Of a stretch of DNA of 64,000 bases, positions 4,704-51,979 are shown one piece after another. The DNA is from Nitrospirota bacterium (GTDB lineage: Bacteria; Nitrospinota_A; UBA7883; JACRGQ01). Under the pieces are notes generated by a model, which searched no databases, had not been told where the DNA came from, and was given only the letters and a program-made list of their open reading frames with translations. Each line of letters starts with the position of its first letter. Position 1 is the stretch's first letter. The stretch spans positions 10,471 to 74,470 of the forward strand of contig JAJRYD010000003.1 in NCBI GenBank assembly GCA_024275955.1, in the 5' to 3' direction. A program made the position numbers and the translations under genes.

Positions 4704-6584
4704 TTACAGTTGTTCTTTTGGCAGATAAAGTTTTATCGTTTCTCTTCCGCTTTTTCCGGTTACAGCTATCGAAGCCGAGCCGCTCTTTTTAAACTTTTTC
4801 ATATTTGAACCGCTAAAGATTTTTTTTATTCTTCTTTTACCGTGCCATATCTTCGAGTCGTTTTTCCCTTTATGAAAAACGATAAGATGGGCGCTAAGCA
4901 GATTAGGCAGTTTACCTACATCGACACCGGCTCTGGCAAGCTCGGCCCTAAACGCCGGGTACACAACACGAGGAGCTGTAGAAAGCCGTGAAAGAACTAC
5001 AACGGTTCCTTTTTTAAGCTTTCCTATTTCTCCGCTCAGCTTTTTACTGCCTGCCATGTTTTGGTTTTCATCAGGATAAAATCGTCCGTTCACCTCGTCG
5101 TTTTCCGCGAAAAGCGCCAGATAGCCTTCCTCTGTATGCGCATTTTTAGAAAAATTCTTGCGCCATACAATACGGCTCTCCGCCTCTATATGGCTTTCCA
5201 GATATACGTTTTCGTAAATAACCTGATGCAGTTTTGGCGACGACTCGGCTATGAGGGTTTCACCCTCGTCAACCTTCCATTTTTGAAAATCGGCTGGATG
5301 AAAAAATCCGACTCCACCTTCTTTTAAAAGAGCGCCTATTTCATAATATGTAAACTGCGGAAGCTCCGCTAGAAGCTCCGGCTCGAGCAGTTGCGAGAGT
5401 TTTATCTTTTTTCTTTTTTTAAGTTTTTCTATGCTTTTGTCAAACTGTTTCGTCTGCTCGAAGATGTTTTTATAAACATCATACGCCTCCCTATACATTT
5501 CGGCATTTACAAGCCCCCTTGCCAGCAGAATGGCGGTTTTCTTTTTTAGCTTTTTACACTGTTTGCAGTTTAAGCTCAAAAACTGCTTCGGCAAGCCGGC
5601 CTTGCTCTTTACGATGGAGGATATTTCCAGCAGGCGGACGTAGTACTTCACCGCTTTTTGCAGATCGCCAGCTTTTATAGATGCAGAAACAACTCCAGAG
5701 AGAGCCTCCTTACTGCCGGGGTTGATACCATGCGCGCCGATGTAGCTCTTACTCGCCGCTTTATAATCGCCTGCCACTTCGTACCAGTGGGCGGTTTTCA
5801 TGTAAGAGGTGTACCAGCCGGTGTATGTCCGCCTGCCGAGAAGCGCTCTATCTATATGCTTTAGAGACAAACCATTATCGTCAATTTTCTTTTCGCGGAT
5901 TTTGAGCGCCGCGTTGTAAGGGTCTATCACCAACGCTCTTTCTATAAGCTGATGTTTGATTGATTCGTCTTCGAACTGTTCTACCTTTTCAAGGTACGAC
6001 TCGGCTAGTTCTTTAAGGTTTACGCTGTATCGAAACTCTGGAATGTAGCTTCTAGCTTCTGCTCTTTGCTCCGCGCCGGAGAGATGCACAAGGTATCTAA
6101 TATCCCACTCCAAAGCCCATACCCCGTCAACTTTTCTCCAAAACTCTTCCTGTATGGAGCTTATCGTTACCTGAGGCATCGGAGGCGGAAGAGGCTGTAC
6201 AACTTCGGATGAGACTTCTGCGAAGTTTCTGCCGGCGTTAAGCTTTATGTTTATTATCTTGTAGGCAAGATGAGTCGGCACATACCGTTTATTTAACAGT
6301 TCCTCCATAGCTCCGCCTCTTGTAGTCTCTGGAAGAAGAACGCCGTTGGGAAGATGCGGCTGAAGGATAAACTGCTTTAATGAAATTATTGATTTCAGCC
6401 TCGGTGAGAGGAAAGAGTATATTTTTTCCCAATCGTTGGCTATCTTAGCTTCAAAAAAATCTCTCTGCCTTTCAACAAGCTTTAAAACTTCCCTTCTCTC
6501 CTTTTTGGTGAGCTCCACAGCTAAGACCAGAGGAGAGGCTAAGTGGAAAAACAGCAGAAATAAAACAACGCTCTTTTTTATCAT
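4704..6584 (-). CDS. Secreted multidomain protein: NTF2-like N-terminus, TPR-like middle, degenerate ILEI/GG-like C-terminus
   Basis: Signal peptide; 'FFEAKIANDWEKIYSFLSP..FWRKVDGVW'; TPR-like 'GDLQKAVKYYVRLLE'; 'LSGEIGKLKKGTVVVLS..ELARAG..SAHLIVFHKG' resembles ILEI. Confidence 0.55.
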   Translation of the reverse strand: MIKKSVVLFLLFFHLASPLVLAVELTKKERREVLKLVERQRDFFEAKIANDWEKIYSFLSPRLKSIISLKQFILQPHLPNGVLLPETTRGGAMEELLNKRYVPTHLAYKIINIKLNAGRNFAEVSSEVVQPLPPPMPQVTISSIQEEFWRKVDGVWALEWDIRYLVHLSGAEQRAEARSYIPEFRYSVNLKELAESYLEKVEQFEDESIKHQLIERALVIDPYNAALKIREKKIDDNGLSLKHIDRALLGRRTYTGWYTSYMKTAHWYEVAGDYKAASKSYIGAHGINPGSKEALSGVVSASIKAGDLQKAVKYYVRLLEISSIVKSKAGLPKQFLSLNCKQCKKLKKKTAILLARGLVNAEMYREAYDVYKNIFEQTKQFDKSIEKLKKRKKIKLSQLLEPELLAELPQFTYYEIGALLKEGGVGFFHPADFQKWKVDEGETLIAESSPKLHQVIYENVYLESHIEAESRIVWRKNFSKNAHTEEGYLALFAENDEVNGRFYPDENQNMAGSKKLSGEIGKLKKGTVVVLSRLSTAPRVVYPAFRAELARAGVDVGKLPNLLSAHLIVFHKGKNDSKIWHGKRRIKKIFSGSNMKKFKKSGSASIAVTGKSGRETIKLYLPKEQL

Positions 6585-8062
6585 TTAAGCTTCCATATTT
6601 GATAATAGGCAATATTATCTGAATAACTATAATTTTTCGTAACCCAGTTTATCAGCAAAGGGGCGTAATGCTTTAAAGAACGTTCTTTTTTATTGTCTAT
6701 TTCTATATCGACAAGAACGACTATTCGCGGCAGTGCCTCGCTTAGCTGTTTTACCAGCTCCTTTTCCTGCGTAGAATCCTTCAGTGTGCCGGGCAGTATC
6801 CAGTCGTAATAGGTCGGGTTGTCTATACCGGCAAGGTAGTAAAAAATAGGGCCAAGAGGCGCGACGAATATCGTTTCACCTTCTTTTGTTTCGTTTTCCA
6901 GCCTAGAGGTCAGCTCCGAAACAATTCGCGCGTCCAACTCGGTAAGGTGTATCGCTTTGGCTTTGCCGTCGTTCATTCTCGCTGTCGTCTGCTTTACCGC
7001 CCCTACAGAGCCGACATAGAACCCCTTTACCATATTAAAATCTGCCAAATACAAGACGAAAACAGCCAGAAATACTGTTTCTGCCAAAGCCTTTAGGTGA
7101 GTTTTTTCGATTTTCTCTAGTACGCGGTAGGCAAGAAACGGGGCGACAATAAAAAAAAGCGGAAGGCACCGCACCAAGTTGTCGAAGCCGGCCCTTGTGG
7201 TGACAAGCGCCATGGCGCAAAACTGCAGGTACGAGAGTATCATGAGTCCCGTCCGCTTAACCCCCTCGTCCATTTTAAACGCTACGGCAAAGACTATAGG
7301 GGCCGAGATAAACGGCAGGTAAAAAAGGATATTCTCCAGAAACGCAAAAAAATCGAACTCCCTTCCCTGATAACCTTCAAAAATGGGCGGGAAACTATTC
7401 CCCCAGAGAAAAAGATCGTTCCGCATATGGAAAATAAGCTGGTCGCCATGCTTGCCGAAAAGAAAGAGACCTAATCCTACAGCGGCAAACAGTGTTATCG
7501 CCGGCAATTTCCATCTTCCGCCGTAATCCCGCCAGACAAGATAGGCATAGACCGGCAAAAAGAAGATTAGCGTTTCGGTGCGAAAGAGATAAGCGATAAA
7601 CGCCCCTGCCAAAACCAAGCCGATGTTGCGCCTGCTTTCAAGAAATGCCAGAACCGCCCAGATGTTAAAGAGAAAAACAAAGCCGTAGAACCTTTGGTAG
7701 TAGACAGCCGGAGCTGAAAGGATAAGAAGTGTCGCGGCGACAGCGAATGGAGCCGGCATTAACCTTCTTGAAATCTGAAAAGCAAGCAGAGGGAAAAAAG
7801 CTGTCAAGACTGCCAGCGACCTTCTAACGTCGACCATGTCGGAACCGACAAACCTATATATCAGTTCCACCAGCAGGTAGCGCCCTTGCGTGTACCCGAA
7901 GAAATCTGTCATTACCGATTGGCCGTTGAGGTACCTGACACCTCCGTAATAAATACCACCCTCGTCCCAAAGGTTGATACCGTAGCGGCAAAATGAAAGA
8001 TAATAGACGGCAGATAGAAAAAAGATTACCGTTCCGATAAAAAACGGCCTGCGGTAAATCAT
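6581..8062 (-). CDS. Polytopic GT-C fold glycosyltransferase (ArnT/PMT-like)
   Basis: 'NLWDEG' acidic motif after TM1, about 10 or more hydrophobic segments, soluble C-terminal domain with 'FYYLAG'. Confidence 0.7.
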   Translation of the reverse strand: MIYRRPFFIGTVIFFLSAVYYLSFCRYGINLWDEGGIYYGGVRYLNGQSVMTDFFGYTQGRYLLVELIYRFVGSDMVDVRRSLAVLTAFFPLLAFQISRRLMPAPFAVAATLLILSAPAVYYQRFYGFVFLFNIWAVLAFLESRRNIGLVLAGAFIAYLFRTETLIFFLPVYAYLVWRDYGGRWKLPAITLFAAVGLGLFLFGKHGDQLIFHMRNDLFLWGNSFPPIFEGYQGREFDFFAFLENILFYLPFISAPIVFAVAFKMDEGVKRTGLMILSYLQFCAMALVTTRAGFDNLVRCLPLFFIVAPFLAYRVLEKIEKTHLKALAETVFLAVFVLYLADFNMVKGFYVGSVGAVKQTTARMNDGKAKAIHLTELDARIVSELTSRLENETKEGETIFVAPLGPIFYYLAGIDNPTYYDWILPGTLKDSTQEKELVKQLSEALPRIVVLVDIEIDNKKERSLKHYAPLLINWVTKNYSYSDNIAYYQIWKLK

Positions 8063-8078
8063 CCGGCCTTTTTCCGGT

Positions 8079-9350
8079 TCAGTTTTTCAATAACTTTTTT
8101 GCCTTTTTCCCGGATTCTGAATCGGGAGAAAGCTTTACCGTGGTCTCATACTCTTTGCGGGCTTCTTTCTTGTTGCCTTTCTTTGAGAGTATATTTCCTT
8201 TAAGGAGGTGTAGGTCTACAAGGCCCTCTACCGCCGACTGGTCGAGCATCGCCATAGCTTTTTCGGTAAACTCTATGGAGGCCTCAAGGTCGCCTTTCGC
8301 GTAGTGTACCTTTGCTAGGTAGTAATAGTAGCTCGGCTTTTCTGCCGGCGCTTTTTTAACCCCGTCGTTGAGTACTTTAACCGCCTCGGCGTAGTTAGAG
8401 GAAGATTGCATGCTTGCATCGGCAAAGCCAGCCCTCGCTTTTGAAAAGGCAGGATTGATCTTAAACGACTTGCCAAAATGCTCAAACGCTTTTTCGTAGT
8501 TTCCCTTCTTCAGGTAATACTCTCCAAACCAGAAATGGGTAAACTCGTTTTCGGCATTCATCTGGTTTGATTTTTCAAGGTAAGGAAAGGCATCGTCCAG
8601 TCTGCCTGTAATCATCATCAGCTGGCCCAGGCTCAGATATACATAAGGGTTTTCTTTATCTAGCGATATTGATTTAAGGTAGCTTTGCTCCGCCATATCC
8701 CATATTTTCTGCTCATCAGCCCACCGGCCGTAATAGTTGTAAGCCATAGCACTCTTAGGGTTTATCGCGAGTGCTTTATCTAACGCTTCTTTTGCCTCCG
8801 GGTAATTCTCGTTTCTTGTAAGAATAACCGCGAGGCTTTCCCATGCCTGCCCAGAGCCGGACTGAAGCTCTGTCCATCTTGTCGCGCGGTTGACAGCCTT
8901 TTCCAGCAGACCGATTTTCGGATATATGTCGGAAAGTATTTTATAGTTTAAAGCGAAGTTCGGCTCCTTTTTAGCAGAAAGTTCAAAAAGCTCTACCGCC
9001 TTTTTAAGGTCTTTTTTGTGATAATAAATAACCGCTTTCCAGTGATCCAACAGGTATCTGTCACTCTTCGAGATTATCGGCTCCAGCTGGTTTAGGACGG
9101 TGAAAGCTCCGTCAAACTTTTCGAGCCGTGCCAGTGTTTCGGCCTTTAGAAAATGAGCCGGTAAATTCCGCTCAAATAGTTCTATCGCCGTTTCGGCCTC
9201 CTTGAGAGCTTTTCCCATCTGGCCGGCGTTTAGATACTCTTTGGCTATTTCAAAATGAATCTCGGAATCGAACTGTTTTTTCTCTAAAGAACCTGTACAG
9301 CCCAAAAAAAAGAGCGGGAGCAAAAGGGCAAGAATCATCCTTAACTTCAT
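8079..9350 (-). CDS. TPR-repeat lipoprotein
   Basis: FFLGC lipobox; many TPR units (e.g. AKEALDKALAINPKSAMAYNYYG). Confidence 0.85.
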   Translation of the reverse strand: MKLRMILALLLPLFFLGCTGSLEKKQFDSEIHFEIAKEYLNAGQMGKALKEAETAIELFERNLPAHFLKAETLARLEKFDGAFTVLNQLEPIISKSDRYLLDHWKAVIYYHKKDLKKAVELFELSAKKEPNFALNYKILSDIYPKIGLLEKAVNRATRWTELQSGSGQAWESLAVILTRNENYPEAKEALDKALAINPKSAMAYNYYGRWADEQKIWDMAEQSYLKSISLDKENPYVYLSLGQLMMITGRLDDAFPYLEKSNQMNAENEFTHFWFGEYYLKKGNYEKAFEHFGKSFKINPAFSKARAGFADASMQSSSNYAEAVKVLNDGVKKAPAEKPSYYYYLAKVHYAKGDLEASIEFTEKAMAMLDQSAVEGLVDLHLLKGNILSKKGNKKEARKEYETTVKLSPDSESGKKAKKLLKN

Positions 9351-9367
9351 ACTGTCTAGGATAATAC

Positions 9368-9398
9368 AAAAAAACCCCCGGCTTTTACAAGCCGGGGG
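9368..9398 (-). terminator. Rho-independent terminator
   Basis: CCCCCGGCTT-x-AAGCCGGGGG stem followed by 7 T on the minus strand, ~30 nt after the 9429 stop. Confidence 0.85.
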
Positions 9399-9428
9399 CC
9401 TAATATCGAACTAAACTATACGATAGCT

Positions 9429-9866
9429 TTAGTTGGTACTTTCTCCATGAGAGAAGTTAAACCCGCCACTATATGTAGACTCGAAAAGAGTAGTAAAACC
9501 ACGAACCGTCGTAGGTTTAATATCTACCCAGCCACGTCTGTTATTGGTGTCGGTGGTATCGTCGCCGCCGGTAGTACCATTAAAGACTGTGGAAGCTACG
9601 TTACCGAGATTACCGAGGTTGAAAAACCAACCGCCGTTACTCACGATAGTCTTGGTGGTAGAGCCTAATGCTGTACCGTCCCACCTGTAAAAAGTTACTG
9701 TAGTAGCCACACTTCCGCCAGAATCGTTGTTTACCCATACATAGGTATTCCAAGTGGTAGCTGTACTACCGCACGAACCACAACCAAACCAGTAGCCTTT
9801 GTCCGCGTGGGCACTCCCCGCAGAAACGAGTAGCATCGCAACAGTTGCTAAAAGAAATTTTTTCAT
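9429..9866 (-). CDS. Small secreted Thr/Gly/Asn-rich beta protein, unknown function
   Basis: AGGAGG SD, ATG 9866, Sec signal ending AHA; own terminator; alternative in-frame TTG at 9932. Confidence 0.85.
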   Translation of the reverse strand: MKKFLLATVAMLLVSAGSAHADKGYWFGCGSCGSTATTWNTYVWVNNDSGGSVATTVTFYRWDGTALGSTTKTIVSNGGWFFNLGNLGNVASTVFNGTTGGDDTTDTNNRRGWVDIKPTTVRGFTTLFESTYSGGFNFSHGESTN

Positions 9867-10098
9867 ACTAAATCCTCCTTCCTTAATAATATTTTTTTGT
9901 TCAATTTTATAAAAATCGGTCAATCGCAACAAAGATAAGCCTCCCCTCTTTTTTTGATATCTGGTCTAAATCGGTAGCCTCCGTCTAATATTTTACATCT
10001 CCAAAGCAAATTCATATCTTCGTATCGTCAAATAAGATTATTTCTTTAGTCAAAAAACCTTTTTCAAATAGACAAATTAACAGTTATCAGCTTATTGG

Positions 10099-10114
10099 AG
10101 CAAAGACCGTGCCG
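10099..10114 (-). promoter_or_regulatory. Sigma54 (-24/-12) promoter
   Basis: Minus strand CGGCACGGTCTTTGCT vs consensus TGGCACG-N4-TTGCW, exact GG-N10-GC spacing, facing the 9866 gene. Confidence 0.75.
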
Positions 10115-10399
10115 TAATATCTTAAAAAGGCTTATATGCTAAAAGAAAAAGCTAAAGCGATAATGCCTTTAAAAACAAAATAATAGAACTGGCTATTTAT
10201 CTAAAACCACAGCTTTTCCTTTTTGAATAGATATCATTCTATTCCTTTCCTCTGTTTCTACCGCTAGATGCCAGAAATCTGCAATACGTTTGTACCAAGT
10301 AAGGAAAAATTTTCCAAAAAAATATGCCGGTTAGGTATCGGTTACTCGCCTTCGCCGTATACCTGCTGACTTTTGAGGCATTTTAAGAGTTTATCTATA

Positions 10400-10516
10400 G
10401 GGTTCCTCTAAAAATAAGTGATCTTCTTCATCGGTTTCGGCAATAGTACTAAATCCCCATCTATAATTCGACCAACCAAAAGTCAGAACTTTAAAAATAG
10501 ATTTTTAGAGGTTCCC
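10400..10516. mobile_element. Possible second MITE (family B), 117 bp
   Basis: 16-bp imperfect terminal inverted repeat GGGTTCCTCTAAAAAT / ATTTTTAGAGGTTCCC (2 mismatches); single copy in window. Confidence 0.5.
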
Positions 10517-10593
10517 TGTAGTAATTTGTTTTTTTAAGATTTTCCCATTTTCTTGAAATGGGGCCTTAGTTGCGTCATACTATCTGCTCTCTT

Positions 10594-10670
10594 GGTGGGC
10601 GTAGCTCAGTTGGTAGAGCTCTGGATTGTGGCTCCAGTGGCCGTGGGTTCAAATCCCATCGCTCACCCCA
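10594..10670 (+). tRNA. tRNA-His (GUG)
   Basis: G-1 plus GTGGGCG/CGCTCAC acceptor stem, anticodon arm CTGGA-TTGTGGC-TCCAG, GGTTCAAATCC T-loop, C discriminator, encoded CCA. Confidence 0.97.
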
Positions 10671-10715
10671 TTTAACTAGTTGCTAAAAAGCAGAAGACCG
10701 CCTGCTATTCTCCAG

Positions 10716-10745
10716 TTTACATTGGTACCTACAAACATGTAGAAT
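10716..10745 (+). promoter_or_regulatory. Putative sigma70 promoter for cheY
   Basis: TTTACA-N18-TAGAAT about 48 nt before the start. Confidence 0.4.
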
Positions 10746-10792
10746 GTAGGTCGCGCTATGTATATAAATTTTGTTTTGCACTTTAGAGGTGA

Positions 10793-11182
10793 ATGATGGG
10801 TGATATTGATCCAAACTTGCGGGTTCTTGTTGTTGACGATTTTGCTACTATGCGCAAGATCGAGAGAAATATTCTTGGACAGCTTGGCGTCAAAAACGTT
10901 GACGAAGCTGATGATGGATCTACAGCTCTTCCCAAGCTAAAGGCAAACCCTTACGACATAGTTCTTCTTGACTGGAACATGCCTACAATGACAGGTCTTG
11001 AGTTGCTTAAAACAATGCGGGCCGATGACGAGCTTAAAGAGACACCTGTTATCATGGTCACGGCGGAAGCACTGAAAGACAATATAGTTGCCGCCGCGCA
11101 AGCCGGAGTAAACGACTATATCGTAAAACCGTTCACCGCCGGAGCTTTAGAAGAAAAAATCAAGAAAGTCTTAAAGCTTTAA
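10793..11182 (+). CDS. cheY: Chemotaxis response regulator
   Basis: [29 protein letters not shown]: enteric-type CheY. Confidence 0.9.
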
Positions 11183-11278
11183 GAACTGCTCTTTTTTTTC
11201 TACACCGCACTTTTTTCTTAAATCTGCAGGCTGTCTGTTTGGGGCGTGCCGTAAACTTTGTTTGCCCTATCCTGTAGA

Positions 11279-11406
11279 GGGGGCTGTTGCCGAATGGCAT
11301 AAATTTGATTTTGTTACAAATTGCAATCTCTAAAGCCTCTATTTTTACGAAGTTAGAAAATGAACTTCTCCTTAAAACGCTTAAAAACTCTTTTGGAAAC
11401 AGTCCC
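11279..11406 (+). mobile_element. MITE family A, full copy, TSD GTAGA(G)
   Basis: GTAGA at 11274-11278 and 11407-11411; between convergent genes. Confidence 0.92.
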
Positions 11407-11422
11407 GTAGAGTCGAGTAGCT

Positions 11423-12127
11423 TTACCTGTTTTCAAGTAGCTGTAGGTAAGCCTTTGCTTCCTTAAAATCAGAATTAATATCCAACGCCTTTTTTATATA
11501 GATTGCCGCCTCTTCCTCTTTACCCCATTCCTTATAGGCCCGTGATAAATTGTAGTAGAGTACTTCGTCTTTTGGGTCTATCTTCAACGCCTTGGTATAG
11601 TTCCGTACCGCCTCTTCGAAAAGCTTGTTCTGTCTTAACTCGATACCTAGCTGGTTGAAGGTATGTTTGTTTTCTTCTGTGTATAAATCGGCGTTGTCCG
11701 CCATAGCATCGAAATGTTCAAGAGCTTTATCAGTTTCGCCAAGAGCCATATGGGCCTTGCCTTTTCCGAGGTGGGCCTGAAGGTTTTCACTATCCTCCTT
11801 TAACACCCTTCCAAGCTCAAAAGTAGCGGAGCTGAATTCTTCGTTTTCGAGATGCTTAAGCCCCACCTCCACCATCTTGGCCACCTGCTCCGCCTTTTTT
11901 TCTGCCGCGCTTTTTTTCTTAAACTTGCAGGCTGTATGCTCGGAGCATGCGGTAAACCTTGCCTGAAAGTCATCCATAGAAATTGTTTCCGACGATATCC
12001 CTGTCGTAGTGCCGTCGTTTTTAGGAAACTGAAGGTCTACTCCGCCGCCTCTTTCCTTGACGTAGTAGTGAAGGGCGTCAGCCGATGAACCAGAAGCAGG
12101 TTTTTCAAAATAGAGACCTTCAACCAT
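11423..12127 (-). CDS. TPR protein with unnamed N-terminal domain (CSEHTAC)
   Basis: C-terminal TPRs (KHTFNQLGIELR..AVRNYTKALKIDPKDEVLYYNLSRAY); N-terminal 70 aa similar to C-terminus of 20262 protein. Confidence 0.85.
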   Translation of the reverse strand: MVEGLYFEKPASGSSADALHYYVKERGGGVDLQFPKNDGTTTGISSETISMDDFQARFTACSEHTACKFKKKSAAEKKAEQVAKMVEVGLKHLENEEFSSATFELGRVLKEDSENLQAHLGKGKAHMALGETDKALEHFDAMADNADLYTEENKHTFNQLGIELRQNKLFEEAVRNYTKALKIDPKDEVLYYNLSRAYKEWGKEEEAAIYIKKALDINSDFKEAKAYLQLLENR

Positions 12128-41594: not shown

Positions 41595-41999
41595 CTATTT
41601 GATACCTTTTCCGGTGAGGTACGGGCCGTATTCCTTGTCGGTTTCGGCTATATGAAATTTCAGCCAGTCGAGCAAACAGTCTATGATTTCAGAATTCAAA
41701 ATTACGGCACCTGCGTTGAAATTCTTCCAATACTTTTTTACTTTTAGCGCAAGCTCCTTATGCTTCTTTTTATGCTCCTCGTAACCGGGATAGCCTGTCT
41801 CAAGCATCAGCTTTTCCTCGGCCGAGAAATGAGTGGCGGTATAGTCAAAAAGCTCGCCTAGCAGTTTGCTTTTCAGCTCTCCGCTTTTTTTATCTCTAAT
41901 TGAATTAACAACTTCACCCAATAAAACAAAAAGTTTTTTGTGCTGTGCGTCCAACGAAGGTACGCCGACCTTGTAGGAGTCGTTCCACTTTACTACCAT
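41595..41999 (-). CDS. Bacteriohemerythrin
   Basis: W...Y.VG..LD.QH, HFSAEE, HKKKH, WLKFHIAETD iron ligands. Confidence 0.93.
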   Translation of the reverse strand: MVVKWNDSYKVGVPSLDAQHKKLFVLLGEVVNSIRDKKSGELKSKLLGELFDYTATHFSAEEKLMLETGYPGYEEHKKKHKELALKVKKYWKNFNAGAVILNSEIIDCLLDWLKFHIAETDKEYGPYLTGKGIK

Positions 42000-42320: not shown

Positions 42321-44447
42321 ATGGAAAACATCGGAATAGGGAAAACATTCGGAAAAAGCAAACCGTTGCTTGGCACCATTATCATCGGGCTTGTGCTTAC
42401 CGCCTCTTTTTTCTTTTACGAAACCGGCGCGACAGCCCGCCTAAGGCTGATACTGCTTGATGCCGCCGCGAAACAGGTAAGACTTGATAAAAAAACAGCA
42501 GATAATATCGCTATTGTACTTATAGACGAAACCTCTCTACAGGCTCTAAACCCGATACTTGGAAGATGGCCCTGGCCTCGGGCCGCCTACTCCGACCTGA
42601 TGGAATTCTTCAAAATGGCGCCCCCGAAAATGGTACTCTACGATATCCTTTTCACCGAAACACAAGACCCCCGAACCGATGGACTGCTCGGTGCCAACGA
42701 TAACGCGCTTGTTTTGACCACCTTGGAGTCCGGTTTTGGTTATCACGCTATTCAGATTCTGGAGGATACCGAAGATGAATATAACAAAACCGACCTGAAC
42801 CGCCCTTTGCCGGACGATTTCATAAAAAAGTTTGCGGTACCTCTCGAAGGTTCCTCCAACTGGCTAGACTCTACAAACAACAAATACTACCTGCCGTTTA
42901 AGGAGCTTTACAACGCTTCCGCCGGTATAGGGGTGGTAGAGTTTTCGCCGGATATAGACGGCGTGTTCCGCCACACTATACCGCTTAGAAGCTATCTCGG
43001 CTCCGCTTTTCCTGTACTTGGGCTTTCTCCTTTCATTAACGGCCAAAAAGTCTCTATAAAGAAAAAGGCAGTAACGATAGGAGATAGGGAAATACCTCTG
43101 GACGATGAGGGAAAGCTTCTTATAAATGTTTACGGAAAATTCAATACCTATTCAATCAGCGGCATATTCGCTTCTTACCAAAAAATTATGAAAGGGGAAT
43201 TTGAAGATCTTATAGTCGACCCTTTGGAATTTGAAGATAAAATTGTCTATATCGGCTCCAGCGCTGTCGGCGTTGAAGATTTAAAGGCAACCTCTATGTC
43301 GCCGAACACTCCGGGAGTATTTCTGCATGCCGCTCTTTCGAGCAACTTTATTTTGGACGATTTTCTTACACCGCCGAACAAGAGTATTACCAGAATGCTT
43401 ATCGTTATCTTCGCGTTAATCTGCGTTCCCCTCCTTCTTTATCTGCCGGGATACCGCAACAAATATGGGTTCCTAATCGTGCTTTCTTTTGGTTTTTTTC
43501 TATTTTGCTATCAAAACTTTACGCAAGGCAAGGTTTACGATTTTATATCTCCTTTTTCAGCAATCTTTTTTTCCAGCCTGTTTAGTTTTGGCTACCTTCT
43601 TGTGACAGAAGGAGTGGAAAGAAGGCGGGTTAAAAAGATGTTTTCACAATATGTCTCGCCGGAGGTTCTTGACGCGGTAGCGGAGAACTACGAGAAATAC
43701 GGCTCTCTGCTTTCGGGAGGCGAAGAAGATATTACGATACTTTTTACCGACATCAGAAGTTTTACATCTTTCTCTGACAGCCACTCCGCGGACACCGTGG
43801 TAAAGATGCTCAATATCTATTTCTCGCGGATGTCGGAAATTATTTTTAAAGGGAAAGGAACCATAGATAAATTTATAGGCGACGCGATAATGGCGTTCTG
43901 GGGGGCGCCTATAAAAATGGAAAATCACCCCGATATGGCGGTCAAAACCGCTATTAATATGATAAAAGAGCTGGAGAAAATCAATGAGGAGATACAGAGC
44001 AAAGGGATAAACCACACCATCAAGATAGGATTCGGCATAAACAGCGGCTCGGCGATAGTCGGCAATATCGGCTCTGAAAGAAGGCTTAGCTACACTGTTA
44101 TAGGTGACGCGGTAAACCTGGCGGCACGGCTGGAAAGCATAACGAAGAACTGGGGGGCCGAGATAATCATCTCGGAATTTACGAGAGAAAAACTCGACCC
44201 GAAAATCCCGTGTAGAGTGATCGATAGGGTAGAAGTAAGAGGCAAAAAAGATAAAATTAAAATTTTTCAGGTATTTGTAGAGGACGATGACGAATCGAGC
44301 AGGCTGGTTAAAATAACCAACGAGGCGTATCAATTATTTGAAAATGGAGACTTTCAAAAAGCACTTGGCCTTTATGAATCAATAGATGATGGAATAATCA
44401 AAGAAGTTTTCGTCGAGAAATGCAGAAAAAAACTAAATCTGTTATAG
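42321..44447 (+). CDS. CHASE2-domain class III adenylate cyclase
   Basis: IDE.SL..GRWPWPR, DIDGVFR, PGV..HA (CHASE2); 3 TMs; FTDIRSFT, DKFIGDA, YTVIGDAVNLAARLE. Confidence 0.93.
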   Translation: MENIGIGKTFGKSKPLLGTIIIGLVLTASFFFYETGATARLRLILLDAAAKQVRLDKKTADNIAIVLIDETSLQALNPILGRWPWPRAAYSDLMEFFKMAPPKMVLYDILFTETQDPRTDGLLGANDNALVLTTLESGFGYHAIQILEDTEDEYNKTDLNRPLPDDFIKKFAVPLEGSSNWLDSTNNKYYLPFKELYNASAGIGVVEFSPDIDGVFRHTIPLRSYLGSAFPVLGLSPFINGQKVSIKKKAVTIGDREIPLDDEGKLLINVYGKFNTYSISGIFASYQKIMKGEFEDLIVDPLEFEDKIVYIGSSAVGVEDLKATSMSPNTPGVFLHAALSSNFILDDFLTPPNKSITRMLIVIFALICVPLLLYLPGYRNKYGFLIVLSFGFFLFCYQNFTQGKVYDFISPFSAIFFSSLFSFGYLLVTEGVERRRVKKMFSQYVSPEVLDAVAENYEKYGSLLSGGEEDITILFTDIRSFTSFSDSHSADTVVKMLNIYFSRMSEIIFKGKGTIDKFIGDAIMAFWGAPIKMENHPDMAVKTAINMIKELEKINEEIQSKGINHTIKIGFGINSGSAIVGNIGSERRLSYTVIGDAVNLAARLESITKNWGAEIIISEFTREKLDPKIPCRVIDRVEVRGKKDKIKIFQVFVEDDDESSRLVKITNEAYQLFENGDFQKALGLYESIDDGIIKEVFVEKCRKKLNLL

Positions 44448-44456
44448 AATACCGGC

Positions 44457-44969
44457 ATGATGTGTCATCGCTCAGACAGCTCGGTTAGGCCTGTTTCTAG
44501 CTTTGCCTTATCGCTTATCGCTTTTATCCTTGTTTTTGCGTACAACCTTCACGCGGCGGAAATTCTTTACGTTCAAAGCGCTAAAGCAAAATTAATGTCG
44601 GACAAAAACTTCAAGTCCGACCTCAAGGAAACCCTTAAGAGGGGGGATAGACTGGAGGCGCTCGAAAACTCTGGCGGCTGGTATAAAGTTTCAGCCGGCA
44701 CCACGAAAGGGTGGGTTCACCGGCTGTCAGTATCTACAAACCCTGTAATGGAAAAACTAACTCTTATCAGCGCCGACGCGCCCGACATATCGAGAGGCGC
44801 CAGAAAAAGGGCATCCGCCATAACCTCCGCGGCGGCGGCGAGAGGGCTTTCCGATACAGACAGAAAAAGGCTAAACGAACAGGGCCGTGCCGACTACCGT
44901 TCGCTTGAAAAACTCGAGAAAGATGCCGGTGGAATTTCAGAAAACGAAGTGGAAGAGTTTGCGAAGTAG
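44457..44969 (+). CDS. Secreted bacterial SH3-domain protein
   Basis: Signal peptide; 'LKRGDRL..GGWYKV..KGWV'; tail with AAARGL. Confidence 0.75.
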   Translation: MMCHRSDSSVRPVSSFALSLIAFILVFAYNLHAAEILYVQSAKAKLMSDKNFKSDLKETLKRGDRLEALENSGGWYKVSAGTTKGWVHRLSVSTNPVMEKLTLISADAPDISRGARKRASAITSAAAARGLSDTDRKRLNEQGRADYRSLEKLEKDAGGISENEVEEFAK

Positions 44970-45805
44970 TGGCAAGCGTGGGGGGGAAAGTCGGCAGGTT
45001 TTATATCGCTGTAACAATCTTTGCCGCTGCTGCTTTTGCTACTCCGGCAGATAGCGCAGACCGCAGGAGGGCGCATCAGGAAACGCAATATATCACCACT
45101 GACGATGTTCAGGCTGAAGTCGACTTCGGCAGGGAGGTAGCGGCAAGGATTATCGGCAAATATTCGCTTTACGAAAATAAAAAACTTACGAGATATCTGA
45201 ACCTTCTGGGAAAAGCATTAGCCGGCAATACCAACAGACCGGAGCTGAACTTTACCTTCGGGGTTCTCGATACCGACATAATAAACGCTTTCTCGGCACC
45301 GGGCGGCTATATTTTCATCACCAAGGGGGCTATAAACTCTATGGAGGATGAAGCGGAGCTGGCAGGGGTAATCGCCCATGAGCTTATACATGTTACGGAA
45401 AAGCATATAGTAAAGGAACTCGGCATAAAAGGTTCCGAGTCATCCGCGGTCGCCGGTATAGGCAGGCTGATAGGAGGCGCGACCGATGTGGCAAAAGTCG
45501 CCTTTTCGCAGGCGGTCGATAAGGCGGAGAATATTCTTTTTAACCGCGGCTACCAGCAAAAAGATGAAATAGAAGCCGACAGGCTTGGAACCCTTTTGAT
45601 ATATTCGATGAACTACAACCCGACAAGCCTTATAGGGTACTTTAAAAAGATAAAGGGAATAGAGGGGGAGCCGACAGGTTCCATTAAAAAACTGCACCCT
45701 CCTTTTGACGAAAGGATTAAATCTATTTTTTCCATTATCGCGGAGGATGGGCTTAAACAAGATGGAACATTAAGAAAAAAGGAGAGATTCGATGCCAATA
45801 TATAG
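44969..45805 (+). CDS. Secreted M48-family metallopeptidase
   Basis: INAFSAPGG, AELAGVIAHELIH, E.EAD, HP...RI. Confidence 0.88.
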   Translation: MASVGGKVGRFYIAVTIFAAAAFATPADSADRRRAHQETQYITTDDVQAEVDFGREVAARIIGKYSLYENKKLTRYLNLLGKALAGNTNRPELNFTFGVLDTDIINAFSAPGGYIFITKGAINSMEDEAELAGVIAHELIHVTEKHIVKELGIKGSESSAVAGIGRLIGGATDVAKVAFSQAVDKAENILFNRGYQQKDEIEADRLGTLLIYSMNYNPTSLIGYFKKIKGIEGEPTGSIKKLHPPFDERIKSIFSIIAEDGLKQDGTLRKKERFDANI

Positions 45806-47084
45806 TAAGGGAAAATATTTTCATCTACTGACAGTGCTACTTCTCGGGTCTTTGGCCAATCCTCTTTTCGCCGATGATTTTCACTACACAAACCTTCTGG
45901 TCGGCGAGCGTGCCGCCGGACTGGGCGGTGCCTACACAGGGGTGTCCGACGACCCTTCCGGCCTTTACTACAACCCAGCCGGAATAGTTTACTCGCAAGG
46001 GCAAAAACTATCTGCAAGCGTAAATTCCTATACCAATGGGGAGCTAAAATATAAAAACGTATTCAGCGGTCAAGACTATGTAAGAAAAACTTCTTCCATC
46101 CTCCCAAACTTTTTCGGCATCGTCCAGCCCATGGGAAGCGGAATGTTCGGCCTTTCCTATGCCGTTCCCGACTCAATAAATGAAGATCAAGACCAGAGTT
46201 TCAGCAATGTAACAATCTCCGGCATTCCTATCGACAGGTTCATAATAAACAAAAAAAAGGAAGATACTACCTATCTCTTTGGGCCGTCTTACGCGAGAGA
46301 ATTTTCCAACGGCCTGTCGCTTGGGGTTACCCTTTATTATTACCAGAGGAAAGTAAAAACAATAAACAACCAGTACATTGATTACGACGATACATGGATA
46401 AGCACCGCCTGTAGCGGGGCGGCGTGCGACTCGGATAAAAGAATAGTAAACATTGTCGAGGAGCATTCGGAATCCGGCTGGAAGCCGGTGCTTGGGCTAA
46501 TGTACTCCCCCGAAGCGGCAAAGTACTCGCTTGGTCTCACCATTTCACAAACATCAATAACTTCTAACTACTTTTACAAACAGAAAACCGTAAAGAGATA
46601 CAGCGATAACGCAACCTCGGTAACGACAGTTGACCCTATAGCCAAAAGGAAGCATCCTACGGAAGTGAAAATAGGGGTTGCCTATTTCCCATCCAATAAG
46701 CTGATGTTTACAGGCGACATCCAGCATTACACCGCGGTAGAAAACTCAATAGATAACGGAATAAAAGACAAAAGAAAATCGGTTACCAACTTTGCGGGCG
46801 GGTTTGAGTATTACCCCACTTCGAGGCGGGCTTACCGTGGCGGATTTTTTACTAGCTACGCGAATACCCCCGCCCTCTCCGATGCCGATTCGCTAAGCTA
46901 CGACCACTTGGATATAAAAGGATTGTCCGGCAGCGCCAGCTTCTTCACAAAAAACACCTCTCTTACAATCGGAGCAGTCTATAGCATCGGTAGCGGTGAC
47001 GGGCAAGCAACCACGGAAGCGGTAACACAGAGCCTTGAATATAAATCACTCGCGCTCTACCTAGCTTCCTCTTATTCCTTTTAG
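45792..47084 (+). CDS. FadL/OmpP1-like outer-membrane beta-barrel
   Basis: 'GERAAGLGGAYTGVSDD.SGLYYNPAG' hatch motif; C-terminal YSF. Confidence 0.8.
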   Translation: MPIYSKGKYFHLLTVLLLGSLANPLFADDFHYTNLLVGERAAGLGGAYTGVSDDPSGLYYNPAGIVYSQGQKLSASVNSYTNGELKYKNVFSGQDYVRKTSSILPNFFGIVQPMGSGMFGLSYAVPDSINEDQDQSFSNVTISGIPIDRFIINKKKEDTTYLFGPSYAREFSNGLSLGVTLYYYQRKVKTINNQYIDYDDTWISTACSGAACDSDKRIVNIVEEHSESGWKPVLGLMYSPEAAKYSLGLTISQTSITSNYFYKQKTVKRYSDNATSVTTVDPIAKRKHPTEVKIGVAYFPSNKLMFTGDIQHYTAVENSIDNGIKDKRKSVTNFAGGFEYYPTSRRAYRGGFFTSYANTPALSDADSLSYDHLDIKGLSGSASFFTKNTSLTIGAVYSIGSGDGQATTEAVTQSLEYKSLALYLASSYSF

Positions 47085-47440: not shown

Positions 47441-47902
47441 ATGGAAAATGAGAGTGGAAATGTCAGGTATCGTGAAGTTCCGCCCGAGGGTGCGAGCGGA
47501 AGAGATAACCCGCCAAAAGAGGATAAGCCTAACCCGCCTGTGGACAGACCTGTTTACGCCGTGCCGAAAAAGGATACAGGTAGCTCCAGTAGCTCCGCCG
47601 ATACGGCTGGCAGGCTTAATTTTAAACCTCTGCTGGTAGCCGGAATGATAATTCTGGCGATTGTCGGAACATATATATACAGCCGCAATATGGTACAGCT
47701 ACCTGTCCATTCTGCTCCTGCAGAAATTTCGACAAACAGGGACAACAGCCTAAAGGTGGAAACGCTTCGAACCATCGGCATTCTTAGCCAGATAGAAGCC
47801 GCCTACACCGATAACCCTGAAAAGCTTGAAGAGGTGAAAAGCCTGAAAGACGACGCTGAAAAAATTCTGGAACTGCTTGAAAACGAAATACGGGAGGAAT
47901 AA
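47441..47902 (+). CDS. Hypothetical single-pass membrane protein
   Basis: Pro-rich N-terminus, one TM, helical C-terminus. Confidence 0.7.
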   Translation: MENESGNVRYREVPPEGASGRDNPPKEDKPNPPVDRPVYAVPKKDTGSSSSSADTAGRLNFKPLLVAGMIILAIVGTYIYSRNMVQLPVHSAPAEISTNRDNSLKVETLRTIGILSQIEAAYTDNPEKLEEVKSLKDDAEKILELLENEIREE

Positions 47903-47912
47903 ACGCGGTCTT

Positions 47913-48380
47913 ATGTGGAGTGATTTAAAAAAAATCGGTAATAGCCTGCTGGAGCAGACCATAGACCAAAAGGAGCTTATCCTATTTAACTTAAGAGTTA
48001 AAAGCCTCTCGGAAAAACAAGAGTCTGCCTTTGCCCGTCTAGGTTCTCTTGTTTACACTCCGCTTAAGGGCGGCAACACCATATCGCCTGATGATGAGGA
48101 GCTTAAAAGCCTTCTGGCGGAAATTGAGGGTATTGAGAAAGAGGTCGAAGAAACCGGCCTTGTAATGAAAAAAATAAAAACCGAATCGGCATCGGGTAGA
48201 GACAGAATGGTAGACGACATTGAAAAAGCATGGAACAAAACCAGAACAGCTTTTAACGAACTGGTAAGCGATGGTGAACCGAAAAAGGAAGCAGATAAAC
48301 CGGAAGTAGAGGCAGTAAATTCCGACTCGGAGACGGCAGAAAAAACAGTAAAAAAAGTTAGCACAGATAAGAAAACCTGA
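47913..48380 (+). CDS. Hypothetical coiled-coil protein
   Basis: ATG 47913 after GGAGG; helical and charged. Confidence 0.7.
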   Translation: MWSDLKKIGNSLLEQTIDQKELILFNLRVKSLSEKQESAFARLGSLVYTPLKGGNTISPDDEELKSLLAEIEGIEKEVEETGLVMKKIKTESASGRDRMVDDIEKAWNKTRTAFNELVSDGEPKKEADKPEVEAVNSDSETAEKTVKKVSTDKKT

Positions 48381-48408: not shown

Positions 48409-48774
48409 TTGGTTGCTTTAAAATTTCTTTTCGGACTAGCTATTCTGATCGTTCTAGTAGTCTTTTCCCTTAATAACCTAGAACCGCAGGTGGAAATCAA
48501 ATATTATATCGACAAAACTCTTGGCCCTATGCCTCTCTCGTTCGCACTGCTTGGGGCGGCGGCGATCGGGTCTATCGTTGCCGCGCTGGTTACGCTTATT
48601 GAGCAGATTAAACTTCGGCATACAGTAAAAAAACAGGCAAAAGAAATAGCACAGCTCGAAAGCCAAATCTTAGAGTTTGAAAGTATGCCGCCGGAGCCGA
48701 TTCCCGATAACTTAGCAGACAGAGACGAAACCGCACTCCCCCCCGCCCTGCCTCCAAAACCTGACGAGAGCTAA
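48409..48774 (+). CDS. LapA-domain membrane protein
   Basis: 'VVFSLNN...V' then second TM and coiled coil. Confidence 0.75.
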   Translation: MVALKFLFGLAILIVLVVFSLNNLEPQVEIKYYIDKTLGPMPLSFALLGAAAIGSIVAALVTLIEQIKLRHTVKKQAKEIAQLESQILEFESMPPEPIPDNLADRDETALPPALPPKPDES

Positions 48775-49939: not shown

Positions 49940-51979
49940 ATGATTAACGAAAGAGTGCTTACGGCGAATCTTAACGCGTTTGTTAAGTGCAACACCCAGC
50001 GTATCGACAAAGCTCTTCAGATTGCGCCTGCCGCTTCCGGCATAGGGTTATTGGTTATTCCGGTTCTTTTTGAAAACAATCATAAGGAACTTCCGGGCTT
50101 TGTGGATGGCGCTAAAAAGCAGAGCGTAATCCCTTTTCTTGAAGTTACCGAACAGATGAAAAATGCCGGCGAAGCGGTTATAAGGCATTTCAAGCAGGTT
50201 CTTTCTGAGATAGACGGCAGTAGCGCGGCCGACCCTATGGCTATATACGGCGGAGGCGCTGGAGGAATCGTTTCGAAGACGCTTATACACTCGCTTTTTA
50301 TTATGGGAAGCGTAGGTACCGCGGCGCAGAACGAAAAATCCGATTTCGATTACTGGGTAGTTTACGACAAAACGAAACTCGAGAAAGAGGAGATCGATTT
50401 CCTCAAGGAAAAAATACGCCTCTTGGAGCAGTGGGGCGATAAAAAAGGGGTAGAGCTTCACTTCTTTCTTACAGATGTAAATGACGCGAGGAACAATATC
50501 TATGGAAGCGCGGATGAAGAGAGTGCCGGCACATCCCAAGCTAGTCTCTTGAAAGAGGAGTTTTACCGCACAGCGTTACTGGTAGCCGGCCGGTACCCGG
50601 TATGGTGGGCCACTCCTCCAAGCATAACAGACAAACAATATGCCGAAGCTATGGAAGTGCTTTCCGGCTCGGCACAGCTCGACCCGACGAGGTTCGTGAA
50701 TCTTGGCAACATCGAGTCTATCCCTATATCGGAGCTTTTCGGCGCCGCTTTGTGGCAGATGAACAAAGCTATTGATTCGCCTTATAAATCTGTCCTTAAA
50801 ATGGGAATGCTGGAAGAGCTTATTTTTTCCAAAAAGTCCACGCTTCTTTGCGAGGAGCTAAAAGAAAAGGCGATAGCCTCCAATGGCGAGCCTAACCCCG
50901 ATCCATACCTTATTCTCATAGAGCGGCTTTTAGGCTACTACAATGGACGAAAGAGGGATGATGTGACAGATCTCTTGAAAAAATGTTTTTACAATAAGGT
51001 TCATATAAAGATAAACGACAAAACGGTTAAAAAAAGCAAATTGAGCTACAAAGAAGAGCTGATGATTAAATACACTGCTGATTGGGGCTGGGACAGCCGG
51101 ATGGTAGACGACATGAACGGGTACGATGACTGGCCTTTCGACAGAATGCTAAAGCTTGGGAACGAGCTTCATAAATTTTTGCTGGAAACATACAGAAACC
51201 TTACGGACAACCTGAAAAAACAGAAACAGAGCGATAAGCTGATTTCCAAGGAAGACCTCACGGTGCTTGGCAACAAGCTTTTTGCTTTTTACAACGTCAA
51301 GAAAAAGGGAAAGGTGGAGCTTATAAGAAGGGCCACCGATACCGCTTTGCGACAAGAGTCGGCGACGTTCAACCCGATAATCACGCGGGGCAAAAAAACT
51401 ATTTGGGCGGTTCTAAAGGGAAACGTCACGACCCTTATAGCAAGAAAAGAGGTTGTGGCCCACGCGGAAATTAAAAGAAACTACAACCTTACCGAGCTGG
51501 TTGTATGGCTTTGGATTAACAAAGTGATAGACCTTAAAAGTTTTCTGCACTTGGTTTCCAGCCCGCTTCCGGTTTCCCTGCAGGAGATACAAGGGCTAAT
51601 GAAAGCTATAAGCGAATTTATGCCGTTCCAGTCGATTGCCAGTATAGACAGCGGACTGCTTTTGCACCGCCCCAAAACGGTCAAGCTTATGGTTATTGCC
51701 AACTTTAATTCACAGGCATGGGCCAAAAAGGTAGAGGAAGTTACGATACTTTACAAAAATAGCCACGGCGAAACATTCGTGGAAACGCTTGAAGGGAAGG
51801 CTGGTCTGCAAAGGGCGGCAGTTGTATACGGCACAGCTTTAGGTGAGGGAATAGAACATCAGCAAAATTTCTTTACTGTCTATATACCGCGTGCCGAAAA
51901 TTCGCTAAAGCTGGAAAAGCAGATAAGAAGTTTCCTCCTCTCCGCCTCACAAAGTGTCAAAACAGCCAAAGAGAGTTGA
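49940..51979 (+). CDS. cyaA: Class I adenylate cyclase
   Basis: MGSVGTAAQ..SDFDYWV, LLKEEFYRT, GAALWQ.NKAIDSPYKSVLK, DPY. Confidence 0.88.
   Translation: MINERVLTANLNAFVKCNTQRIDKALQIAPAASGIGLLVIPVLFENNHKELPGFVDGAKKQSVIPFLEVTEQMKNAGEAVIRHFKQVLSEIDGSSAADPMAIYGGGAGGIVSKTLIHSLFIMGSVGTAAQNEKSDFDYWVVYDKTKLEKEEIDFLKEKIRLLEQWGDKKGVELHFFLTDVNDARNNIYGSADEESAGTSQASLLKEEFYRTALLVAGRYPVWWATPPSITDKQYAEAMEVLSGSAQLDPTRFVNLGNIESIPISELFGAALWQMNKAIDSPYKSVLKMGMLEELIFSKKSTLLCEELKEKAIASNGEPNPDPYLILIERLLGYYNGRKRDDVTDLLKKCFYNKVHIKINDKTVKKSKLSYKEELMIKYTADWGWDSRMVDDMNGYDDWPFDRMLKLGNELHKFLLETYRNLTDNLKKQKQSDKLISKEDLTVLGNKLFAFYNVKKKGKVELIRRATDTALRQESATFNPIITRGKKTIWAVLKGNVTTLIARKEVVAHAEIKRNYNLTELVVWLWINKVIDLKSFLHLVSSPLPVSLQEIQGLMKAISEFMPFQSIASIDSGLLLHRPKTVKLMVIANFNSQAWAKKVEEVTILYKNSHGETFVETLEGKAGLQRAAVVYGTALGEGIEHQQNFFTVYIPRAENSLKLEKQIRSFLLSASQSVKTAKES

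Follow-up and report, generated by a model that had tools for sequence, protein, structure and literature searches.

A four-gene operon in a 64,000-nucleotide stretch of the genome of a Nitrospirota bacterium (contig JAJRYD010000003.1; this whole stretch is referred to here as the window) encodes a CHASE2 adenylate cyclase of the inner membrane, two exported proteins (an SH3 protein with a conserved tail and an M48 zinc metallopeptidase) and a predicted FadL-type barrel of the outer membrane. Our best explanation, to which we would give a probability of about 0.45, is that the four genes form one operon for an envelope-spanning sensory unit with cyclic AMP (cAMP) output, in which the SH3-tail protein and the M48 peptidase serve as a periplasmic accessory pair. 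The gene content, the export signals, the intact catalytic residues and a co-conservation in three nested levels, comprising the SH3-M48 pair, this pair with a CHASE2 receptor, and both with a FadL-type barrel, are all directly observed. Coordinates are positions within the window.

42321-47084, + strand: the operon, four open reading frames of 708, 170, 278 and 430 amino acids
42000-42320, + strand: upstream non-coding region with no open reading frame, the presumed promoter region of the operon
42321-44447, + strand: CHASE2 class III adenylate cyclase (P0001), 708 amino acids, with Pfam matches to CHASE2 and Guanylate_cyc
42426-43388, + strand: periplasmic CHASE2 sensor domain, residues 36-356 of the cyclase, from a predicted model
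44457-44969, + strand: exported SH3 protein with conserved tail (P0002), 170 amino acids, with a signal peptide, an SH3b domain at about residues 55-92 and a charged tail of 75 amino acids
44823-44849, + strand: tail motif T-S-A-A-A-A-R-G-L, residues 123-131, with the core [RK]-G-[LF], from the alignment
44969-45805, + strand: exported M48 zinc metallopeptidase (P0003), 278 amino acids, with a Pfam match to Peptidase_M48
45792-47084, + strand: FadL-type outer-membrane barrel (P0004), 430 amino acids, with a signal peptide and a C-terminal ...SYSF, from a predicted model

The sequence-only reading of this locus had described tightly packed genes for one inner-membrane, two exported and one outer-membrane protein, and both parts of that description hold. 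Reading of the junctions gives a 9-nucleotide gap between the cyclase and SH3 genes, a 1-nucleotide overlap (TAG/GTG) between the SH3 and M48 genes and a 14-nucleotide overlap between the M48 and barrel genes, and the set of products is borne out by Pfam, the translations, hydropathy and the barrel model. A Shine-Dalgarno sequence (AGGAGAG) stands 6 nucleotides 5' of the barrel ATG. Non-coding DNA flanks the operon on both sides, with approximately 320 nucleotides upstream and 350 downstream; a consensus scan of the locus for promoters and terminators returned counts not above those of shuffled sequence, and we therefore place no promoter upstream of the operon.

Conservation of this neighbourhood was followed at close range by single-protein searches of 40 related genomes, 13 of them from the family of the window. 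Orthologues of all four genes (approximately 35-61% identity) occur in the same nine of the 13 family genomes and none occurs in the other four, and in all nine the order cyclase-SH3-M48-barrel is kept on one strand within the limits of the contigs; six of the loci are complete and three are cut by contig ends. Lack of co-conservation would have refuted the module of the sequence-only reading; the genes proved to be co-conserved. With P0004 as the query, no barrel was found in the other 18 genomes of the class. Outside the family, other members of the class keep the SH3 gene directly before the M48 gene, as judged by Pfam. A CHASE2 cyclase is adjacent to SH3-M48 in genomes G027, G030 and G024 and, in divergent form, in G008; in G038 the two are adjacent and divergently oriented, and in G018 and G014 they are 5-10 kb apart. 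The G008 locus, from the family of the window (L040, contig C143, positions 5204-11424), is a divergent variant of the cassette, made up of a CHASE2 cyclase, a 201-amino-acid protein, an M48 peptidase, a 421-amino-acid protein and a response-regulator diguanylate cyclase. Its 201-amino-acid protein aligns with the SH3-tail family and has no Pfam SH3 match, and the 421-amino-acid product of the fourth gene, which belongs to no known family, was rejected as a relative of the barrel (hhalign probability 0.2%).

Across phyla, the M48 alignment was run against one genome per species and the loci of the best 80 of 592 relatives were scored with custom hidden Markov models (HMMs); as the loci were selected by similarity and many are related to one another, the counts are descriptive and do not represent independent trials. 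An SH3 gene lies directly upstream on the same strand in 57 of the 80 M48 loci (a count that leaves out L122, which also has an SH3 gene), and 55 of these SH3 proteins carry the tail. Cyclase or CHASE2 matches are present at 38 loci, upstream on the same strand in 35 and directly downstream in three, and 33 loci have both an SH3 gene and such a match. The 22 loci that have no SH3 gene mostly encode long M48 proteins of BepA size. By their record titles, the lineages represented include Nitrospirota, Acidobacteriota, Planctomycetota, beta- and gammaproteobacteria, Aminicenantes, Margulisiibacteriota and several delta-proteobacterial metagenome-assembled genomes (MAGs). At two loci (L124, 3909-5528; L127, 4609-6351) the protein encoded before SH3-M48 has a CHASE2 domain and no recognisable cyclase domain, its output region having no Pfam match, which indicates that the linkage is to the CHASE2 sensor domain rather than to the cyclase output.

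The barrel family of P0004 is much narrower in its distribution. Of the 80 M48 loci, 74 have no barrel; the family is represented at L050-L053 and at L082, a contig from Margulisiibacteriota. A search starting from the barrel, in metagenome contigs (best 80 of 355 barrel relatives), gave the reverse view. Fifty-nine of these barrel loci have at least 700 nucleotides of upstream sequence, and an M48 gene is found in 55 of them, directly upstream in 50 and convergent in five, with SH3 and cyclase genes behind it. Where at least 3.5 kb of upstream sequence is available (32 loci), M48 is present in 31, SH3 in 31 and the cyclase in 27; at one locus (L171) the barrel stands alone. Barrels of this subfamily thus almost always have the cassette as their neighbour; they are a clade-specific fourth member that lies outside its widespread core. 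One delta-proteobacterial MAG (L099, 3001-7726) has a canonical FadL gene (Toluene_X, E 9.2e-108) directly upstream of CHASE2 cyclase-SH3-M48, and here a FadL-type barrel appears to have become linked to the cassette separately.

Phylogenetic trees of the M48 peptidases (103 rows, from a quick search) and the cyclases (62 rows) follow the same divisions. The M48 peptidase of the window falls in a clade of 13 rows (support of 100 in the Shimodaira-Hasegawa-like approximate likelihood ratio test, SH-aLRT) made up of its family and L050-L053, with a barrel in every row, and the cyclase of the window falls in a clade of 11 rows (SH-aLRT 100) with M48 linkage in every row. A separate clade of 21 rows holds 20 CHASE2 paralogues of the cyclase, from the same class, that have no SH3 or M48 gene within approximately 4 kb, and FecR-linked alphaproteobacterial cyclases constitute another group. 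One class-level clade mixes linked, nearby and unlinked members; the linkage has therefore been broken there, with both partners still in the genomes.

The first gene product carries matches to CHASE2 (PF05226; 141.7 bits, E 4.2e-41, cut-off 26.3) and Guanylate_cyc (96 bits, E 2.7e-27, cut-off 21.9), which place it among both the CHASE2 sensors and the class III cyclases. Class III cyclases are recognised by two metal-binding Asp residues, a substrate-specifying Lys and Asp/Thr, and a transition-state Asn and Arg. The cyclase domain spans residues 469-650 and is followed by a short C-terminal helical tail; its closest solved counterparts are 6fht, 2w01 and 3r5g, and its motifs FTDI, DKFIGD and YTVIGDAVNLAARLES align with those of the adenylate cyclase 6fht. 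The Lys (DKF) and Thr (YTV) that had been assigned to the specificity positions are indeed present, and they align with the solved cyclase where such residues are expected, while the label of class IIIb and the roles of the individual cyclase residues are ones that we assume. Hydropathy places a first transmembrane helix at about residues 15-33, the periplasmic CHASE2 region at about 36-356 (approximately 320 amino acids) and a hydrophobic block at 359-428. The CHASE2 domain was modelled from 39 sequences with a mean predicted local distance difference test (pLDDT) score of 92.9, and D12, W50, R52, D73, D178, R182 and A280 (domain numbering) are invariant. No clear solved analogue of this model was found (best Foldseek E 0.075, best VIA-align Z 4.2), a result which does not establish that the predicted domain has a new fold. 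The protein is the only CHASE2 protein in the 2.45-Mb genome.

Export signals are visible in the translations of the other three products. The SH3-tail protein exceeds the cut-off of the Pfam bacterial SH3 family SH3_3 (PF08239; 34.1 bits against 27) and has profile matches to solved SH3b domains, and its tail has no PDB or Pfam match. The AAARGL sequence singled out in the sequence-only reading exists and is conserved as [RK]-G-[LF]: among 75 SH3-tail proteins, G130 is present in all 75, R or K at position 129 in 73, L or F at position 131 in 71 and the C-terminal F168 in 66, and in an alignment of 18 such proteins G130, E154 and F168 are invariant. A motif this short and strict, in an otherwise variable tail and beside an always-active protease, would suit a docking or cleavage site.

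The third gene product belongs to family M48 (Peptidase_M48, 87.8 bits, E 1e-24, cut-off 20.3). In all 22 sequences compared, residues H137, E138 and H141 of its zinc motif HELIH are invariant, as are the distal zinc-ligand Glu, E200, and H243; HExxH is kept in all 103 rows of the M48 alignment. It has no TPR match and no lipobox cysteine, there being no Cys in its signal peptide. The closest solved chain is the stand-alone M48 protein 3c37_A (profile E 5.5e-57), for which no function is recorded in the file searched, followed by BepA (YfgC; approximately 1e-38). Both share the peptidase fold and catalytic motif of P0003, but BepA has a TPR domain, whereas P0003 has none; assignment of P0003 as BepA was rejected on this ground and on its score (NCBIfam 82.8 bits against a cut-off of 570) and length of 278 amino acids. 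Assignment as a LoiP/YcaL-type lipoprotein was likewise rejected (59.8 bits against 365, no lipobox Cys). The same genome encodes, elsewhere, an M48-TPR protein of BepA architecture and a third M48 protein, so that P0003 is a dedicated paralogue. Among the longer M48 homologues listed in a separate search, the top four (P0005-P0008, 496-747 amino acids), 33-46% identical to P0003, carry long extensions that match no custom HMM.

The fourth gene product has no Pfam match. The FadL/OMPP1/TodX family (PF03349) is defined by a 14-stranded barrel, an N-terminal plug, an NPA motif and the Pfam model. An AlphaFold model of P0004 built from 14 relatives (pLDDT 77) has E. coli FadL (E 1.2e-15, template-modelling score 0.63), TodX and TbuX as its top Foldseek matches; the residues N61-P62-A63-G64 are invariant in 14 of 14 relatives, and three relatives (L053, L042 and L208) pass the Pfam Toluene_X model, L053 with 33.5 against a cut-off of 29.7. 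On this predicted structure, P0004 is probably a FadL-type barrel despite the silence of Pfam. Its predicted barrel and plug region at the N-terminus resemble those of FadL, one of the hydrophobic-compound channels together with TodX and TbuX, and N-P-A is invariant among its relatives, but it is too divergent for the Pfam model, and its subfamily is tied to the SH3-M48-CHASE2 cassette and not to degradation operons. The model also resembles FadL-like subunits of Bacteroidota beta-barrel assembly machinery (BAM) complexes (9hiv_F, 9n2d_B and 9hjm_F, E approximately 1e-13 to 1e-12), here with a BepA-like neighbour. A PorV/PorQ (type IX secretion) assignment was rejected, the NCBIfam match reaching 47.2 bits against a cut-off of 90 and covering the N-terminal 50 residues only. 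At locus L208 a single frame of 690 amino acids (5119-7188, stop to stop) covers the place of M48 and barrel, with the Pfam FadL match confined to residues 306-574; a fusion, read-through or an error of assembly might account for it.

The statement that no characterised system of this composition is known agrees with our search of the full-text literature, in which the cassette is not described (subscription journals lie largely outside the literature searched). Several known systems share parts of it. Reports on Sinorhizobium meliloti (PMC13001267, PMC7529298) describe CHASE2 adenylate cyclases, CyaD1, CyaD2 and CyaK, that work with the outer-membrane protein NsrA, the linked signal being protein-like and protease-sensitive. 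The sequence-only reading had drawn this parallel, and it stands as a functional analogy, in that an inner-membrane CHASE2 cyclase and an outer-membrane protein turn an outside signal into cAMP, but does not extend to architecture. As described there, NsrA is much larger, with its barrel portion at residues 600-1200 (PMC7529298), compared with the 430 amino acids of FadL-type P0004; this size and barrel position make the likeness functional only, and we do not class P0004, which that published description sets apart, as an NsrA-type receptor. Neither an SH3 protein nor an M48 peptidase is reported for that system, and the CHASE2 cyclase loci of S. meliloti, Ruegeria and Paracoccus that we examined have FecR-domain neighbours, not SH3/M48, as does G039.

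FecR-type partners also feature in the Burkholderia 'BiofilmReg' operon and the P. aeruginosa PA4035-like pair, for which PMC5192318 reports a CHASE2 histidine kinase with an exported LysM-FecR protein. The likeness lies in a CHASE2 sensor beside an exported accessory protein in a tight operon; the accessory there is of FecR type, with no protease, and the output is a kinase, not a cyclase. It thus seems that exported partners accompany CHASE2 sensors, and SH3 plus M48 would be a second, undescribed kind. For a protease acting in this way, the closest precedent in mechanism is the JspA/LppA-ExoR system of S. meliloti, in which, as reported in PMC10659215, JspA and LppA lower ExoR, the periplasmic inhibitor of the kinase ExoS (ExoS/ChvI). 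Here too a periplasmic M48 metalloprotease and a small exported partner lower a regulator of an inner-membrane sensor. However, as that account has it, the histidine kinase ExoS lacks CHASE2, JspA is a lipoprotein of 497 amino acids with a LysM domain, its partner LppA is a lipoprotein and not an SH3 protein, and the genes do not share one operon with the sensor.

It is likely that the four products work together, and a putative relay from barrel to protease to SH3 protein to CHASE2 domain is a reasonable account of how they might do so. What follows on binding, cleavage, the direction in which the signal passes and the part played by the barrel is inferred. The inner-membrane CHASE2 cyclase would be the transducer, and the SH3-tail protein would most likely bind both the M48 peptidase and the CHASE2 partner. 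The peptidase may cut the SH3-tail protein, or be held in check by it, at or near [RK]-G-[LF], and the CHASE2 domain would set cyclase activity by reading how much SH3-tail protein is present or in what state, in analogy to a sensor kinase that is switched when a protease removes its periplasmic regulator. The FadL-type barrel of this clade would probably let a hydrophobic or amphipathic signal from outside pass laterally to the periplasmic pair. A more specific version, which we regard as unlikely in this full form, makes the SH3-tail protein a protease-gated pro-ligand: the M48 cut at [RK]-G-[LF] would free or expose a tail fragment that switches CHASE2, and the hydrophobic signal of the barrel would control the cut.

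Several observations weigh against a single sensory unit. In several genomes of the class, SH3-M48 is flanked mostly by unrelated housekeeping genes; 17 of the 80 M48 loci have SH3-M48 and no cyclase despite at least 3 kb of upstream sequence; and four of the 32 barrel loci (L144, L147, L164 and L208) have SH3-M48-barrel with unrelated genes upstream and no cyclase. The exported proteins thus do not act merely in the service of the cyclase. Three acidobacterial loci have the M48 gene immediately after the cyclase gene, and no SH3 gene could be detected there. As a weaker point, no fused SH3-M48 or M48-barrel (or cyclase) protein was seen with the custom HMMs among the 120 longer M48 homologues listed. 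The loci being picked by similarity and related, the counts overstate independence, and the relatives are all uncultured MAGs or metagenome contigs. Finally, the closest characterised relatives of P0003 (BepA) act in outer-membrane protein assembly, not signalling. In the main rival explanation, SH3, M48 and, at this locus, the barrel constitute an autonomous envelope-maintenance unit, for example for BepA/LoiP-like quality control of outer-membrane or cell-wall-linked proteins, and the cyclase is only a frequent neighbour that responds to a ligand of its own. It would account for SH3-M48 being the deepest conserved pair, often alone, for the cyclase-less SH3-M48-barrel loci, for BepA and LoiP being the best NCBIfam and PDB relatives of known role, and for the resemblance of the barrel model to the FadL-like BAM subunits. 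It accounts less readily for the constant position and orientation of the cyclase across many phyla (35 of 80 loci), for the linkage of CHASE2 proteins that have no cyclase domain, and for matching M48 and cyclase clades with the unlinked CHASE2 paralogues as a separate lineage; moreover, the genome already encodes a protein of BepA architecture. On balance we consider this explanation possible but rather doubtful.

Two other explanations both seem to us improbable. The barrel could be a sentinel for outer-membrane assembly, such that a stalled barrel would be degraded by M48 and the products, or the free barrel, sensed through SH3 and CHASE2 to raise cAMP, much as unfolded porins trigger sigma-E. 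The relationship of P0003 to BepA, the typical aromatic C-terminus of the barrel and the near-constant company of M48 in the barrel subfamily (55 of 59 loci) all fit such surveillance, but 74 of the 80 M48 loci have no barrel, and with most cassettes lacking one this cannot be the general mechanism. Alternatively, M48 might trim or shed the periplasmic CHASE2 domain itself, with the SH3-tail protein as an adaptor or inhibitor of the cleavage. The co-conservation data fit this arrangement as they do our preferred explanation, and the tail motif could be a pseudo-substrate; however, SH3-M48 pairs exist that have no CHASE2 neighbour, and no conserved exposed site for such a cut was seen in CHASE2, although no search aimed at one was made.

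Upstream, the divergent neighbour of the operon is a hemerythrin gene that ends at 41999. Downstream lie two overlapping open reading frames (153 and 167 amino acids; 47441-48380, + strand) with no Pfam match, followed by a gene for a LapA-domain protein (48409-48774). A class I (CyaA-type) adenylate cyclase is encoded 2.9 kb downstream of the operon (49940-51979, + strand; Pfam Adenylate_cycl 3.9e-54, Adenyl_cycl_N 9.5e-48). The 2.45-Mb genome has 13 matches to the cyclic nucleotide monophosphate (cNMP)-binding domain and can therefore read cAMP, and together with the class I cyclase gene these suggest that cAMP signalling is heavily used in this organism.

CHASE2 is a widespread sensor domain, for which we found no defined ligand in the literature searched. 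The cassette keeps together a CHASE2 sensor, a small exported protein with an invariant motif and a protease, and as such offers a testable lead on the signal input of CHASE2, with the barrel subfamily, hardly ever found away from the cassette, as a candidate point of signal entry. If the proposed relay is true, it would explain the switching of a large class of cAMP receptors, and probably of others. If the SH3-tail protein does prove to be a pro-ligand, this would be the first defined mechanism of CHASE2 input, and one common to bacteria of many phyla.

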